Below, one piece after another: positions 2,925 to 19,597 of a DNA stretch of 55,550 nt. The stretch lies in sequence record PQ202980; one strand, 5' to 3'. Each line of letters begins with the position of its first letter. The stretch's first letter is position 1. A model generated the notes under the pieces. It was not told the origin of the DNA and searched no databases. It saw nothing but the letters and a program-made list of their open reading frames with translations. The position numbers and the translations under genes are program-made. The DNA comes from Escherichia phage CSP1C.

Positions 2925-3019
2925 TTGCAACTTCCAAATTGATTGGTTTATATTAACGAACACGGGGCTGGGACGGCTCAGCCCCAAAAACGTCACACGG
3001 GTGACAACGGAGATAAGAA

Positions 3020-3892
3020 ATGAAAAAGAGTTCTGTAGCTATTAATGTTGGTATGGCTTTAATTAATCCACGCGCTCGCGGTGAAGGTGATGTGGAACTG
3101 GAATACGAATATGCATCTGCGGAAGAGATTCCGGCAGAGTTTGCTGCTCTTTACGCAGAGCAGGGCGGTAAATACGTTCTTGCAAAAGTTAAAGGTGTAG
3201 CCCCTGCTGATAGCGTTCGTCGTCTGGAAAGTGCGTTAGCTAAAGAACGTAACGACCATCGTCAGGTGAAGCAACAGATTAGCGCACTTGGGCGTCCGGT
3301 TGAAGAAGTCCTTGCGGACCTTGATCGTATCCCTCAACTGGAAGCTGCCGCTAACGGTAAAGGTACTCCGGAAGACATCGAAAAGATGGTTAAAGCCCGT
3401 CTTGCTCCACTCGAGCGTCAATTGCAAACTGTAGCAGCTGAACGCGATTCCGTTAAACAGGAAATTGAAGGCTACCGCACTCGCGAAACTAAAGCGAAGA
3501 TTAAAGATGCAGTTATTGCCGCTGCTTCTGGTGCTAAATTGCGTCCATCCGCTATCGAAGACGCTGTAACTTATGCACAGTTGCAGATGACCGTCGACGA
3601 GAACGGCAATGTGGTTACGAAAGATGGGGCTGGTGTAACTCCTTACCTGACTCCGGCTGACTGGCTGAACGAAATCCTTCCGAAACGTCCGCACTGGGTT
3701 GAAGGATCTGCTGGTGGTGGTGCATCTGGTCCGGGCGCTGGTGGCCATCACGGTGAAGATCCATACAGCCACGACGGTTGGAACATCTCTAAGCAGATGA
3801 ACCTCTGGAAAACTAACCAATCTTTAGCTAAACGTTTAGCTGAAAAGAATGGCGTAGACCCGCTGAAGCCTGTACGTCCTGCTAAGAAATAA
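3020..3892 (+). CDS. putative scaffolding / head morphogenesis protein
   Basis: 290 aa, charged and helical with Gly-rich C-terminus, between portal and major capsid gene; SD GGAG. Confidence 0.4.
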   Translation: MKKSSVAINVGMALINPRARGEGDVELEYEYASAEEIPAEFAALYAEQGGKYVLAKVKGVAPADSVRRLESALAKERNDHRQVKQQISALGRPVEEVLADLDRIPQLEAAANGKGTPEDIEKMVKARLAPLERQLQTVAAERDSVKQEIEGYRTRETKAKIKDAVIAAASGAKLRPSAIEDAVTYAQLQMTVDENGNVVTKDGAGVTPYLTPADWLNEILPKRPHWVEGSAGGGASGPGAGGHHGEDPYSHDGWNISKQMNLWKTNQSLAKRLAEKNGVDPLKPVRPAKK

Positions 3893-4014: not shown

Positions 4015-5076
4015 ATGTCTAAATCTAAAATTATTCTACCATTTGGTCGTGGTGAAACTGACCTGACTCGTTTGAAGGATGTCATTGTCCCTGAGATCTT
4101 CACTGGTTATGTGCAGACGCAGACCGCTGAACTTTCTGCCCTGATCCAATCCGGTGCGGTTGTAATGGACGAGCGTTTATCTGCTAACCTTGCTGGTGCA
4201 GGTTTGACTTTTAACGAGCCGTTCTATAATGACCTGAAAGACGAAGACGAAGATATTGCGATCGATAAAGGTGCTCCGTCCAAACCGTCAAACATCACTA
4301 CCGGATCTGAAGTTCAGGTTCGTATGAGTCGCTCAAAATCCTGGGGTTCTGCGGATCTGGTATCTGCTTTGATTGGTAACGACCCAATGACCGCTATCGG
4401 TAATCGCGTGTCTGCGTGGTGGGTTCGCCGTCTGCAAGCTGCATACATTGCAACCTGGAAAGGTGTATTTGCTAATGCCAAGAAATCCCATTCGGACGAT
4501 CTGACGTTCGATATTTCCGGTTCTTCATTTGTAAACAACCAGACCAACTTTACCGCGTCTAACTTCATCAACGCAACTGCAACGATGGGTGATGCTGCTC
4601 GTGGTCTGACCATGATTATGGTACACTCTACCGTTCGTAATCGTATGCGTCAGCTGAACCTGATCGACTTCATTCCGGATGCTCGCGGTGAAACTCAGTT
4701 CGAGTATTATCAGGGTTTGCGTATTATTGAAGACGACTCCATGCCGCACGATCCGTCTACTGGTATCTTTGAAAGCTGGCTGTTCGGCCCGGGCGCGACT
4801 GCAATGGGTGCTGGTTCACCAAAAGTTCCGACCGCTGTGGTTCGTGACGAAGCTGCTAACAATGGCGCTGGTGAAGAAGTTCTTCACAACCGTGTTGAAT
4901 GGATTCTGCATCCGGTCGGTCATGCTTGGGCTGCTGCCCAAACTGCTAAAGGTGGTCCGTCTAACGCTGCTACCACTAACAACCTGGCCCATGAAGATTC
5001 CTGGCGTCGTGCGTTCCCTGAGCGCAAGCAGCTTAAAGTCGCACGCCTGATCACTCGTGAGTATCAGGGTTCCTAA
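4015..5076 (+). CDS. major capsid protein (HK97-fold type)
   Basis: 353 aa ORF with SD GGAG, followed by a strong terminator; position after portal/scaffold. Confidence 0.7.
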   Translation: MSKSKIILPFGRGETDLTRLKDVIVPEIFTGYVQTQTAELSALIQSGAVVMDERLSANLAGAGLTFNEPFYNDLKDEDEDIAIDKGAPSKPSNITTGSEVQVRMSRSKSWGSADLVSALIGNDPMTAIGNRVSAWWVRRLQAAYIATWKGVFANAKKSHSDDLTFDISGSSFVNNQTNFTASNFINATATMGDAARGLTMIMVHSTVRNRMRQLNLIDFIPDARGETQFEYYQGLRIIEDDSMPHDPSTGIFESWLFGPGATAMGAGSPKVPTAVVRDEAANNGAGEEVLHNRVEWILHPVGHAWAAAQTAKGGPSNAATTNNLAHEDSWRRAFPERKQLKVARLITREYQGS

Positions 5077-5107
5077 GGCTTCACTCAACGCCGCGCTGTA
5101 GTATTTT

Positions 5108-5133
5108 GGGGACATTTATGTCCCCTCTTTTTT
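5108..5133 (+). terminator. rho-independent terminator after major capsid gene
   Basis: GGGGACAT..ATGTCCCC stem followed by TCTTTTTT. Confidence 0.7.
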
Positions 5134-5145
5134 AGGAGAACAACC

Positions 5146-5469
5146 ATGCGTTATCAACGTTATGAACGACATGACTTGATGGAAAAATCGTTGCAGGTGG
5201 AGCCAATTTCGATTACTCTCGATCCTGCTAAGATTGACACCACAACTTCAGAAGTAAAGACGGTTACTGTTAAAATAAACTTTGTCCCAGGCGGAACTAC
5301 AAACAAAGCGTATAGCGCGTCAGTTGACGGTTCCTCTGCTACAATTAAAGACAACGGGGACGGTACAATTACCGTGACCACAACCGCAAGCAGTGGTACT
5401 TCAAACTTGACAGTAACGTCCAAGGCAAAGGATAGTGTTACTGGTACATGTGTTATTAATGTGACCTAA
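5146..5469 (+). CDS. Ig-like (Big_2-type) domain protein, possible capsid decoration protein
   Basis: 107 aa, Thr/Ser/Val-rich beta-strand pattern (TVTVKINF..GTITVTTTASSG..LTVTSKA) typical of bacterial Ig-like domains; SD AGGAGA. Confidence 0.5.
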   Translation: MRYQRYERHDLMEKSLQVEPISITLDPAKIDTTTSEVKTVTVKINFVPGGTTNKAYSASVDGSSATIKDNGDGTITVTTTASSGTSNLTVTSKAKDSVTGTCVINVT

Positions 5470-5486
5470 AAAATAAGGATTAAACA

Positions 5487-6140
5487 ATGAAGACATTAAT
5501 TGAAGCATTGTTAGAACTTGATCCGGATAACCCGAATCATTGGACTAGCGACGGTCTACCTAAAGTTGACGCTCTGCGTTTCGCTACTGCTAACCCGTCT
5601 TTAACCCGCGACGATATTACAACTGCTGCTCCGCTGTTTACCCGCGATAACCGCGTGCTGGAAGAGCCAGAGGCAGTGGAACCTGTTAAATCTGCTGATC
5701 CAGTTTTACATGAAGCTGTCAAACAGGAGAAAGCTCATGAAGAACAAAAGAAAGTCGCGGTTGCAACGATGCAAATCGAAGTTAAGATTAGCGAAGCACT
5801 GCGTGCTCTTCTGGAGCCGGAAAAAATCGGTGACACTTCCAGCCTAAGCGATGAAGAGCTAAAAGCGAAGCGTGAAAAGCTTAGCAATGTGGTTAAAGAG
5901 ATTGCCCACACTAAGCACGCGCTGGAGCTCGCTATTGCAGACGTTCAAGCGGATCTGGATAAGATTATCGTTGAGCAGGAAAGTCGTCGTCCTAAGTCCG
6001 GTCTTACTGCAACTCAGATGTATCTCGAGGCGCAGAAAAAACGTAAACCTGAAGACATGCTTTCTGACCATCGCTTCCAGAACCCTATTGACGATCCGGT
6101 TGCCCGTATGGTTGCACGTAATATGATGCGTCGAGGTTAA
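5487..6140 (+). CDS. hypothetical head-associated protein
   Basis: 217 aa ORF with SD AAGGA, located in head module. Confidence 0.45.
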   Translation: MKTLIEALLELDPDNPNHWTSDGLPKVDALRFATANPSLTRDDITTAAPLFTRDNRVLEEPEAVEPVKSADPVLHEAVKQEKAHEEQKKVAVATMQIEVKISEALRALLEPEKIGDTSSLSDEELKAKREKLSNVVKEIAHTKHALELAIADVQADLDKIIVEQESRRPKSGLTATQMYLEAQKKRKPEDMLSDHRFQNPIDDPVARMVARNMMRRG

Positions 6141-17547: not shown

Positions 17548-17578
17548 AACCCCGCTTCGCGCGGGGGTTTCTTTTAGT
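17548..17578. terminator. bidirectional rho-independent terminator between tail fibre and lipoprotein genes
   Basis: CCCCGC ttcgc GCGGGG stem followed by GTTTCTTTT; convergent genes on both sides. Confidence 0.65.
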
Positions 17579-17807
17579 AGTTAGCTACACAGTTTGAAGG
17601 TGAACCAATTCGTCGGTATTCATGATCAATCTCATGGCACCATTGTCCAGTCATTGGAAGCTTTTCGGTATCATAAATTAAAGAACCGTTACCATCACGG
17701 TCTAACGGTTTTGGAATAACGCCGGAATTAGGTTTACCAGTATTCAGACCGTTACCACATGCAGCGAGGGATAAAGTTAATGCAAGCATAATTAAAGCGC
17801 GTTTCAT
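17574..17807 (-). CDS. small lipoprotein, candidate superinfection-exclusion protein
   Basis: ATG 17807 with SD AAGGAG; signal peptide MKRALIMLALTLSLAAC with lipobox LAAC; convergent with the fibre gene. Confidence 0.55.
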   Translation of the reverse strand: MKRALIMLALTLSLAACGNGLNTGKPNSGVIPKPLDRDGNGSLIYDTEKLPMTGQWCHEIDHEYRRIGSPSNCVANY

Positions 17808-17891
17808 TGGGAACTCCTTTTGTGTTGTTGTCAAGGTTCAATTCTAATATACTTGTTGTGTTGAGTAAGTCAAATAAATGTGGGAGATATT

Positions 17892-18062
17892 ATGGCAACT
17901 CGTTTACGTGGTACTTTAGTTGATGGTTTAAATAAACCAATTGTCAACGCTACAGTTGCGCTTTTAGCAAAAGGGAATAGCTTATTGGTATTGTCCGGCA
18001 GTGAAGCTATCTTTAAAACAAGTGCAACCGGAACAACCTGTAGAAGCTCGCGAACATATTAG
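17892..18062 (+). CDS. small ORF with transthyretin-like N-terminal signature (possible gene remnant)
   Basis: 56 aa starting MATRLRGTLVDGLNKPIVNATVAL; SD GGGAGA; another open frame continues to about 18165. Confidence 0.3.
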   Translation: MATRLRGTLVDGLNKPIVNATVALLAKGNSLLVLSGSEAIFKTSATGTTCRSSRTY

Positions 18063-18151
18063 TCCGTGGCCACCAATGATTGATCAGGAAGTTTTGCAGC
18101 CAAAGACCGCTCAAACGGTCCCTCAGAAACCGGAGCAGAAGGTAAAACCAA

Positions 18152-18436
18152 ATGACGAAGAATGAAGGTATTGATAAAGTTGTTGAAGGACTTTCTATTC
18201 GTGCTCATGTTATAGCAGATGAAGGTCATGATCAACTTACTATTATGAAATCCGCATTCAGCGATTTCAAGTCGCTTGGAAACTTAAGCGGGTTAATGAC
18301 TGTGGTGTCGACCGGAAAATTAACCCAGCAGCAAATCAGTCTAGCTCAGCGTATTGCTGTTAAAGTTATTGCGGTACTTGGGATGATTGAAGCTGAAAAG
18401 CCCAGTTCCAAGCAGGATAACGAAAGCGACCTTTAA
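18152..18436 (+). CDS. hypothetical protein
   Basis: 94 aa ORF with plausible SD. Confidence 0.45.
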   Translation: MTKNEGIDKVVEGLSIRAHVIADEGHDQLTIMKSAFSDFKSLGNLSGLMTVVSTGKLTQQQISLAQRIAVKVIAVLGMIEAEKPSSKQDNESDL

Positions 18437-18447
18437 GGAGGTCTACT

Positions 18448-18651
18448 ATGTGTGGTAATACTAACCGTTGCTGTTTAGGCAGTCCTGCAACACAAGCAGG
18501 TATACTTCAGGGGCAATTGGCTCAAGCAGCGTGTAATTGCAAGACGTTTCAACCAGTAGCGCCAACTCCGGTGTTTGTGAATGCTTTTGCACCGCCTGTT
18601 TTCAATACTTTTGGCGTATACCCATACGGTGCTTTCTTTCGTATATTCTAA
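18448..18651 (+). CDS. Cys-rich small protein
   Basis: 67 aa with 5 Cys and an aromatic/Pro-rich C-terminus; strong SD AAGGAGG; followed by terminator. Confidence 0.5.
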   Translation: MCGNTNRCCLGSPATQAGILQGQLAQAACNCKTFQPVAPTPVFVNAFAPPVFNTFGVYPYGAFFRIF

Positions 18652-18655
18652 GAAG

Positions 18656-18683
18656 AGAAAAGGGGCAAACGCCCCTTTCTTTA
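18656..18683. terminator. bidirectional rho-independent terminator
   Basis: AAAGGGGC aaac GCCCCTTT stem with flanking A/T runs between convergent genes. Confidence 0.65.
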
Positions 18684-18962
18684 ACGCTTATGAAAAGCTG
18701 ACAGGATTGCAAGTGTTACAGCACCCAATCCGACGACGGTAGCATAAGTGAGTTGATGTTGAACTTTAACAAAACCGTAATAGGTGCTAGGGATCTCCAC
18801 AATCCCAAACGCCATAGCAAAGCTGGTTCCAAGCAGTGCGACAGCAAGGGCGCGTAATAACGCCCTGCTCATTGCTGTGAAACCTTTCTCGTTACTGTCT
18901 CCGGTCATTATAACCACAATAATAAGAAACAGCGCAACAATTACTAGCAAGTATTCCATCAA
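18681..18962 (-). CDS. small membrane protein (2-3 predicted TM helices)
   Basis: 93 aa, hydrophobic stretches LLVIVALFLIIVVIM and AVALLGTSFAMAFGIV. Confidence 0.5.
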   Translation of the reverse strand: MMEYLLVIVALFLIIVVIMTGDSNEKGFTAMSRALLRALAVALLGTSFAMAFGIVEIPSTYYGFVKVQHQLTYATVVGLGAVTLAILSAFHKR

Positions 18963-19390: not shown

Positions 19391-19597
19391 TTACGCTTCC
19401 GGTGATTCCGGAGTTGGCTCATCTGGAACAACAATAACGTCGGCTAAAACCTTTAACGCTTCTTGTTGCTCAGCGGTCATATTATTCCAGTAATAGACGT
19501 GAATGTAAACTACTGGTTTGTCACCATGTTGCCACGGTTCGCGACTTACTACATCCACACCTAAATCGCTTGCTACGCTCTTTTCTTTACCAGCCAT
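19391..19597 (-). CDS. hypothetical protein
   Basis: 68 aa ORF; hairpin 19362-19385 downstream. Confidence 0.4.
   Translation of the reverse strand: MAGKEKSVASDLGVDVVSREPWQHGDKPVVYIHVYYWNNMTAEQQEALKVLADVIVVPDEPTPESPEA

Follow-up and report, generated by a model that had tools for sequence, protein, structure and literature searches.

The DNA considered here (sequence record PQ202980; 55,550 nucleotides, hereafter the window) comes from Escherichia phage CSP1C, a virulent siphophage belonging to Seuratvirus, and its sequence features match those of the published deletion mutant. The subject is a short open reading frame (ORF) on the forward strand at 18448–18651, designated gene E, which starts with ATG and specifies a small protein of 67 amino acids (aa) with a cluster of Cys residues and no acidic residue, MCGNTNRCCLGSPATQAGILQGQLAQAACNCKTFQPVAPTPVFVNAFAPPVFNTFGVYPYGAFFRIF. 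The rightward late block of the genome (1–18651) and the leftward block (18681–45432) converge at the terminator that follows E. E is the last cistron of the late block and the terminal member of a mobile accessory cassette of five genes, A-B-C-D-E, and gene D (18152–18436, forward strand) is its immediate upstream neighbour.

Gene E, its product and its expression signals

The reading frame of E opens at the first start codon past the preceding in-frame stop codon and cannot be extended upstream. Translation confirmed the original prediction of a 67-aa peptide with five Cys in its first 31 residues, which are located at positions 2, 8, 9, 29 and 31, and of a Pro/Phe-rich C-terminus, the second half of the protein containing 7 Pro and 8 Phe. 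No charged residue occurs between K32 and R65, Asp and Glu are absent over the whole length, and the isoelectric point is 8.8. The density of Cys is not exceptional: the window has 325 six-frame ORFs that reach 45 aa, and 13 of these have at least five Cys within 31 residues. What goes beyond chance in E is the conservation of the Cys positions, rather than Cys density in one sequence.

A Shine-Dalgarno (SD) sequence, AAGGAGG (18435–18441, forward strand), was read directly 6 nucleotides (nt) before the ATG, and is as strong as had been claimed. A site of this type (AAGGAGG, AGGGGG or poly-G) precedes E in 15 of 15 distinct nucleotide variants. A palindrome, GACCTTTAAGGAGGTC, at 18428–18443 holds both the SD sequence of E and the stop codon of D, and might couple translation of E to termination of D; it is not kept in yong3 or in 9NA-type phages. 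A scan for promoter-like (sigma-70-like) sites on the forward strand found none upstream of E.

A hairpin at 18654–18682, identified by folding, by pattern scan and from the annotation of phage Seurat, begins 3 nt past the E stop codon. Its predicted stability is -18.8 kcal/mol (z = -3.65), which was reached by none of 200 shuffled sequences. A consensus scan gave a terminator-like call on the minus strand only (18679–18658), and in the Seurat record the equivalent site is annotated as a terminator on both strands. The hairpin is thus immediate, but it is not E's own terminator as first proposed, because it is bidirectional and closes both the whole late block that ends with E and the convergent gene at 18681–18962 (gene F).

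Conservation and distribution of the E family

The E protein is 100% identical in 22 phage records, among which the DNA of the region is 91–98% identical. The gene differs at 7 nt from that of Seurat, 5 nt from that of CAjan and 4 nt from that of slur01, and every one of these differences is synonymous. For unsaturated pairs, the ratio of non-synonymous to synonymous substitution rates (dN/dS) was 0.15 against SA126VB, 0.11 against L008 and, for 9NA and a related contig of its group, 0.064, the overall range being 0.06–0.17. About 15 variants of 49–67 aa were found in two unrelated phage groups, with the ORF, SD sequence and position all kept. The DNA of E is saturated with changes in yong3 and 9NA and the N-terminal peptide motif is still present in both; in yong3 there are many synonymous changes and the conserved motif is intact. 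E is thus under strong purifying selection, and is almost certainly a genuine translated gene.

The original prediction argued for real expression, and this part of it now has indirect but strong support from purifying selection and from the retention of SD sequence, ORF and position in about 15 variants. Similar peptides in related phages, for which a search had been proposed, were found; since the ORF, SD sequence and position are kept, the absence of conservation that was to have refuted the prediction does not apply. As far as the literature could be searched, it reports neither translation nor proteomics nor function for the counterparts of E (Seurat gp23, CAjan gp25 and 9NA gp15).

Residues M1, C2, C8-C9, L10, G11, P13, T15, Q16, G18, L20, Q21, Q23 (Met once) and A25 are invariant or nearly so, and the conserved core of the family is MC...CCLGSPATQxGxLQxQxA. 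E carries the family motif M-C-[GC]-x(2-4)-C-C-L-G-x-P-x-T-Q-x-G-x-L-Q-x-[QM]-x-A followed by an acid-free Pro/Phe-rich tail, directly past D. All variants seen share C2 and the C8-C9 pair, but C29 and C31 are limited to the E. coli Seuratvirus clade. Hence, of the five Cys regarded at first as a signature, C2, C8 and C9 stand as such and the other two are lineage-specific. Other variants gain Cys at position 3 or 7 (MCCRTSCC, MCCGTPCC and MCGNTNCCC), the R7C substitution occurring in several, so that there are up to five Cys among the first 9 residues, three of them invariant. The C-terminal half is only 25–36% identical where the N-terminal 27 residues are 62–80% and the neighbours D and F 54–78% identical. 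It keeps its composition, being Pro/Phe-rich and, in the six variants analysed, acid-free, and ends in F, W, Y or L.

An AlphaFold2 (AF2) model of E showed a single helix at residues 13–33 and coil elsewhere with low confidence (predicted local distance difference test, pLDDT, 52.5); this value was too low for a fold search, and inference of a fold from the model was dropped. No membrane helix was detected using simple hydropathy only, without a dedicated predictor, as the maximum Kyte-Doolittle hydropathy over 19 residues was 0.98 (0.88–1.58 in six variants), under the usual threshold of 1.6, and the highest-scoring segment holds 7 Pro. The protein would be composed of a 9-residue N-terminal thiol cluster (C2 and a vicinal CC, often with one or two more Cys), the invariant LGSPATQ turn, a Gln-rich helix at about residues 13–33, and a non-helical, hydrophobic tail of 20–35 residues, which is Pro/Phe-rich and acid-free and has an aromatic residue or Leu at its end. 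The C-termini FFRIF, RIW, FVFY and LFFL were compared by eye with outer-membrane beta-signals, clamp-binding motifs and tails like that of single-stranded DNA-binding protein (SSB), and fit none of these; no export signal was seen.

The only family matched by E was PHROG 25697, which has the function label 'unknown' (hidden Markov model (HMM) expectation value 3.2e-49, 166.6 bits, residues 1–67 on profile positions 1–67 of 67). E corresponds to Seurat gp23 (AIW03886.1), CAjan gp25 (AJT60510.1) and the old CSP1_005, and 9NA gp15 (AIB07018.1) and KarinMuster Bas82_0006 belong to the same family. The members share the place of E past gene D and before the bidirectional terminator, the E protein being 100% identical to those of Seurat and CAjan and about 42–45% identical to the 54-aa 9NA-type variants, and all entries read 'hypothetical protein'. 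As an object, E is already known, as more than 20 phage genomes carry the identical 'hypothetical protein' with a PHROG of its own.

A 2-kb query around E retrieved 36 phage records, nearly all from Escherichia phages of Seuratvirus (Queuovirinae), with Cronobacter phage CSP1 being 99.9% identical. E matched 9 clusters in a search of 5.8 billion proteins, and this search and that of 1.84 billion representatives found only small proteins of 54–67 aa, apart from a 36-aa truncated copy and an 81-aa frameshifted copy. Apparent distant relatives from an HMM search of the 1.84 billion representatives (P0010–P0013) were rejected as artefacts, being long tandem-repeat proteins that sum weak stretches. 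An alignment search added variants from Hafnia phage yong3, whose record does not annotate the gene, and from the metagenomic phages P0006, P0007 and P0009. The 54-aa form is found in Salmonella phages 9NA (gp15), Sasha, Sergei and Solent and in E. coli phage KarinMuster, and metagenomes contain nine E loci, mostly on contigs of about 60 kb.

No copy of E was present in 185,579 species genomes of bacteria and archaea (GTDB), and there are hence no prophage copies among them. None of E, D, F, A, B and C had a significant match in Pfam, NCBIfam, PADLOC, PDB sequences or Rfam. For E, there was no PADLOC match at an expectation value of 0.1 or below, which is a weak test as PADLOC covers defence, not anti-defence, proteins. 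E was found only in Seuratvirus and 9NA-like phages, all of which are virulent, and the family is very narrow.

The A-B-C-D-E cassette and its rearrangements

In the intact Seuratvirus genomes (CAjan, SA126VB, yong3, L018 and L019), the lateral tail-fibre gene is followed by A-B-C-D-E, the terminator and F. Gene D encodes 94 aa (PHROG 7239) and its product is confidently predicted to form a four-helix bundle (pLDDT 89.6), for which no informative fold neighbour or sequence relative was found. Gene F (18681–18962, reverse strand) is convergent on E and encodes a very hydrophobic protein of 93 aa (phrog_15669) with a maximum 19-residue hydropathy of 2.92 and, by inspection, probably three membrane segments. 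It is 52–53% identical to 9NA gp16 and KarinMuster Bas82_0007. In 18 of the 18 loci with flanks long enough, D, E and F are all present and E adjoins D.

D is much more widespread than E. It occurs in 161 phage records (Drexlerviridae, Nonagvirus/Queuovirinae, Eiauvirus, 9NA-like phages and others), most of them without E. In Drexlerviridae, Nonagvirus and Eiauvirus, A-D come after the lateral tail fibre and D abuts the next convergent gene, E being absent. The gene directly past D in eiAU is a homologue of F, with no E between them. E was therefore added late, at the 3' end of a cassette that is older.

Gene A (CSP1_021; CAjan gp21, L014 positions 4450–5157) encodes about 235 aa with a Gly/Ala-rich N-terminus, an invariant CCCET motif and C-terminal PTPPTPPTGCC, and the latter or a close variant of it ends all copies but that of eiAU. 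The N-terminal Gly/Ala-rich segment is weakly hydrophobic and is nearer to a signal-arrest-release (SAR) domain than to a classical membrane helix; a releasable anchor in A would fit the antiholin behaviour sensitive to proton motive force (PMF) that has been reported. Gene B (CSP1_022; CAjan gp22, L014 positions 5229–5597) encodes about 122 aa including a His-rich stretch, GEHHHEHEKEEYKHAHSYARDHEH, and a CTC motif, and gave a weak, sub-threshold match to Pfam PRA-PH (MazG-like). Both A and B are absent from the window. Gene C (CSP1_023) encodes about 176 aa. Cys clusters recur in the cassette, as CCC and C-terminal GCC in A, CTC in B and the N-terminal cluster in E. The His-rich stretch and CTC motif of B, together with the Cys clusters of A, C and E, are hints of metal handling in the cassette. 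Neither an enzyme-like domain nor a family match was found in D, F, A, B or C, and E thus lacks the maturation, export and immunity neighbours of a ribosomally synthesised and post-translationally modified peptide (RiPP) or bacteriocin.

CSP1C is a spontaneous clear-plaque mutant of CSP1 that has lost 4,672 bp covering CSP1_020 (the lateral tail fibre), CSP1_021, CSP1_022 and most of CSP1_023 (PMC13577005). The junction is located at 18022–18035 (forward strand), where the sole remaining copy of a 14-bp repeat, GTGCAACCGGAACA, is a unique match (PMC13577005). What remains of the deleted region is an N-terminal stump of the tail-fibre gene (CSP1C_020; 17892–18062, forward strand) of 56 codons, which matches phage_tail_N and positions 1–48 of phrog_4128, and a C-terminal stump of C (CSP1C_021; 18076–18165, forward strand) of 29 codons, which matches positions 129–165 of PHROG 8329 (PMC13577005). 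As the deletion spans CSP1_020–022, the lysis-suppression genes are absent from the window.

Kim and Ryu (2025) reported that A and B together with the tail fibre (CSP1_020) jointly suppress lysis (PMC13577005). A binds the holin in a two-hybrid assay, and collapse of the PMF releases the lysis block (PMC13577005). Thus, the assignment of A as a holin-binding antiholin, with B required beside it, is experimentally supported. The holin, endolysin and spanin genes of CSP1 are CSP1_091–093, located elsewhere in the genome (PMC13577005). As CSP1C retains D and E and served for all complementation, the minimal set of CSP1_020, 021 and 022 was defined with D and E present in every phage-based assay.

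Two further genes near the locus were noted. A minus-strand ORF at 19391–19597 (68 aa) fits the frameshifted CSP1_029 of CSP1C, in which deletion of a single T lengthens the 59-aa protein to 68 aa; deletion of CSP1_029 leaves plaque turbidity unaltered (PMC13577005). A small lipoprotein gene (17574–17834, reverse strand; PHROG 12984) lies within the late block, past the J-like tail tip gene and between a terminator at 17550–17566 and the tail-fibre stump. It is labelled in Seurat as an 'apparent moron' with a bidirectional terminator, and plausibly encodes a superinfection-exclusion lipoprotein of the Cor/Llp type.

KarinMuster has A-B-C-D-E followed by F between the terminase and portal genes. 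In 9NA, a decayed block lies between the same genes, with A cut to 62 aa, B gone and C shortened. The 9NA and CSP1C proteins are 72% identical for D, 56% for the C stump, 53% for F and 42% for E, as compared with 22–35% for the remaining detectable matches (dUTPase, DNA polymerase, helicase, primase and tape measure), and no match between the two phages was detectable for TerL or portal. C-D-E and F are hence common to Seuratvirus and the otherwise almost unrelated 9NA/Sasha-like phages, which indicates that the block was exchanged horizontally.

Several phages have lost parts of the cassette. In phiG7 (L017 positions 1240–1700), a copy of A that is truncated and frameshifted runs into about codon 9 of E, so that the start and first 8 codons of E are lost and D is gone. 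In KS_A3 (L004 positions 2960–3070) and KS_S4, the last 22 codons of E are left, the upstream intergenic (promoter-like) region joining codon 46, and there is no D. These phages are viable with E truncated, and E is therefore dispensable for plaque formation and in all probability a non-essential accessory gene. In Seurat, 9NA and CSP1C, A-C are deleted or reduced and D and E are intact. The last 63 residues of Seurat gp21, a 'tail fiber protein' of 602 aa (L001 positions 835–2643), are 97% identical to the C-terminus of C. This fusion points to an independent deletion that removed A and B, of the same kind as in CSP1C, and thus to a recurrent deletion hotspot. It had also been considered as a sign that C is a tail-fibre tip domain; deletion explains it best, and the fusion does not argue for C, D or E being parts of the fibre. 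In SA126VB (L005; equivalent to window positions 18518–18700), a mosaic patch with nt identity down to 68–84% is confined to the 3' half of E plus the terminator, the flanks being at least 96% identical, which indicates recombination within E. Judged from these comparisons, E sits at a recombination-prone junction and travels with D.

Possible role of E

E shares a cassette with the CSP1 lysis-suppression genes CSP1_021 and CSP1_022 (PMC13577005), and A, B and E all bear clustered Cys. However, E is not homologous to CSP1_021, lies outside the minimal set, is still present in the clear-plaque mutant and has no predicted membrane segment. A resemblance by eye between QLAQTAGLTCKINQ...PTPPTP and QLAQAACNCKTFQ...PTP, taken as possible homology of E to the C-terminal region of A, was rejected (Smith-Waterman score 43 against 26.5 +/- 4.5 for shuffles, 9 of 2000 of which reach it; BLASTP expectation value 1.1; hhalign probability 1.8% for the alignments of both families). 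Like Rz1-type o-spanins and other small Pro-rich, Cys-bearing lysis proteins, E is about 60 aa long, Pro-rich, possibly bridged through Cys and derived from a lytic phage of Gram-negative bacteria, but it has no signal peptide and is neither embedded in nor adjacent to an i-spanin gene. It also has no lipobox ([LVI][ASTVI][GAS]C), as the first Cys is residue 2 and the ORF is not extendable upstream. Holins and antiholins of the T4 RI, P1 LydB and CSP1_021 type have at least one transmembrane or SAR domain, and none was found in E by hydropathy. Likewise, no Pfam, NCBIfam or PDB match linked E to the tail-fibre assembly or chaperone families (lambda Tfa, T4 gp38/gp57A, Caudo_TAP).

Vicinal Cys form metal sites in metallothionein-like CC/CxC motifs and in tetracysteine CCxxxCC, a form present in the 9NA-type variants. 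The CC/CxC spacing of E resembles these sites, and some variants read MCCRTSCC or MCCGTPCC. E differs in having only three invariant Cys and no family match, and binding of metal is putative. Morons at the 3' end of late operons are, like E, small, dispensable and lineage-restricted, and lie between the last conserved late gene and the terminator. E differs from classic morons, which typically belong to temperate phages and bring along a promoter and a terminator, in that it has no promoter, is confined to virulent phages and was not found in bacterial genomes.

The thiol cluster, LGSPATQ, the helix and the acid-free tail, together with the constant neighbour D, suggest a small adaptor that needs a partner. 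Our preferred interpretation, which is tentative as a whole, is that E is a non-essential late accessory protein working with D as an adaptor for the envelope/lysis programme. E would be made late in infection and in the cytoplasm, where the four-helix bundle D would bind or stabilise it. The Cys cluster may provide metal- or redox-dependent association, and the sticky tail may attach to a partner near the membrane; in this way, E would tune the envelope/lysis programme served by the rest of the cassette. We would give slightly less than even chances to E functioning together with D or the cassette. Lysis suppression is the only functional handle on the locus, which makes a modulatory role in lysis the best guess.

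Several observations weigh against this interpretation. The A-D cassette in the 161 records with D is mostly without E; D thus does not need E, and their adjacency may mark only the site at which E was inserted. Joint loss of D and E rests on two or three independent events only, and the model of E has low confidence (see above). Reconstitution in E. coli BL21 used CSP1_020–022 with holin and endolysin, without D or E (PMC13577005), and CSP1C retains D and E, yet lyses normally (PMC13577005). E is hence neither necessary nor sufficient for lysis suppression as measured, and for this reason a role of E specifically in lysis timing is considered unlikely.

The main rival makes E an independent, lineage-specific moron that was inserted ahead of the terminator, past the last late gene, and that acts alone on a host target, e.g. 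as a small peptide that inhibits growth or acts on membranes, or as an anti-defence factor; its link to the cassette would be positional only. This is possible, though on balance doubtful. It would account for E being an add-on to genes that occur without it (A-D in Drexlerviridae, Nonagvirus and Eiauvirus, and in eiAU also F), for its location at the classic place of morons where two transcription blocks converge, and for its being dispensable and not needed for the known phenotype of the cassette; a basic, hydrophobic protein with no acidic residue in the six variants analysed would also suit such a role. However, E lacks a separate promoter, was beside D wherever it was found (18/18 loci), and is absent from prophages and bacterial genomes, in which morons usually circulate. 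Nor was there a membrane helix (maximum 19-residue hydropathy of 0.88–1.58) or a match to PADLOC or any other family. A minor virion or tail-fibre-associated protein, i.e. a cap cross-linked by disulfides or metal or an assembly factor for the lateral fibre, is less likely than a moron given the gene order in 9NA-type phages, and we regard it as improbable. In its favour, E closes the structural operon and lies, in every Seuratvirus genome, past the lateral tail-fibre locus, A-D also follow lateral tail-fibre genes in T1-like phages, Nonagvirus and eiAU, lysis suppression genetically needs the tail fibre beside A and B, and Cys clusters could cross-link outside the cell. In 9NA and KarinMuster, however, the block is located between terminase and portal genes, far from the tailspike, and linkage to a tail fibre is thus not obligatory. 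Phages whose fibres differ considerably carry a 100% identical E, the CSP1/CAjan fibre bears its own intramolecular chaperone domain (Peptidase_S74), and E has no signal peptide and matches no tail-fibre assembly family. Moreover, phiG7 and KS_A3 form plaques without E.

The alternative that E is not a protein gene is essentially excluded. It supposes a fortuitous ORF over DNA that is conserved at the nucleotide level, for instance because a terminator, an RNA element or a recombination hotspot resides there, and might be prompted by the shortness of the ORF, a Cys density within the range of spurious six-frame ORFs, the omission of E by several annotators (it is absent from the annotation of the PLYYY01, Skure, ECP2304 and yong3 records) and the recombination junctions inside E in phiG7, KS_A3 and SA126VB. 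Substitutions in the E frame are overwhelmingly synonymous, and the dN/dS values largely refute this alternative; the amino acid motif outlasts saturation of the DNA in yong3 and 9NA, length and SD sequence are conserved, and there is no Rfam match.

In a more far-reaching reading, to which only a slight chance is given, E is a thiol- or metal-dependent part of an unrecognised mobile module (A-E and F) that governs whether and when the cell lyses. The module would be spread over T1-like, Queuovirinae, Eiauvirus and 9NA-like siphophages, and E would couple the redox or metal state to the lysis decision, or hit the host envelope alone. If this were true, E would represent a new class of acid-free, Cys-cluster small proteins.

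Nothing about E points to a mechanism of an unusual kind, and it would otherwise be one more small phage ORFan. The present analysis adds that E is under strong purifying selection, that it belongs to the cassette, that C-D-E and F have been exchanged between unrelated phage groups, and that E is a late addition, restricted in lineage, which is always found beside D. The main value of E is that, with D, it is one of the obvious remaining members of the CSP1 lysis-suppression locus.

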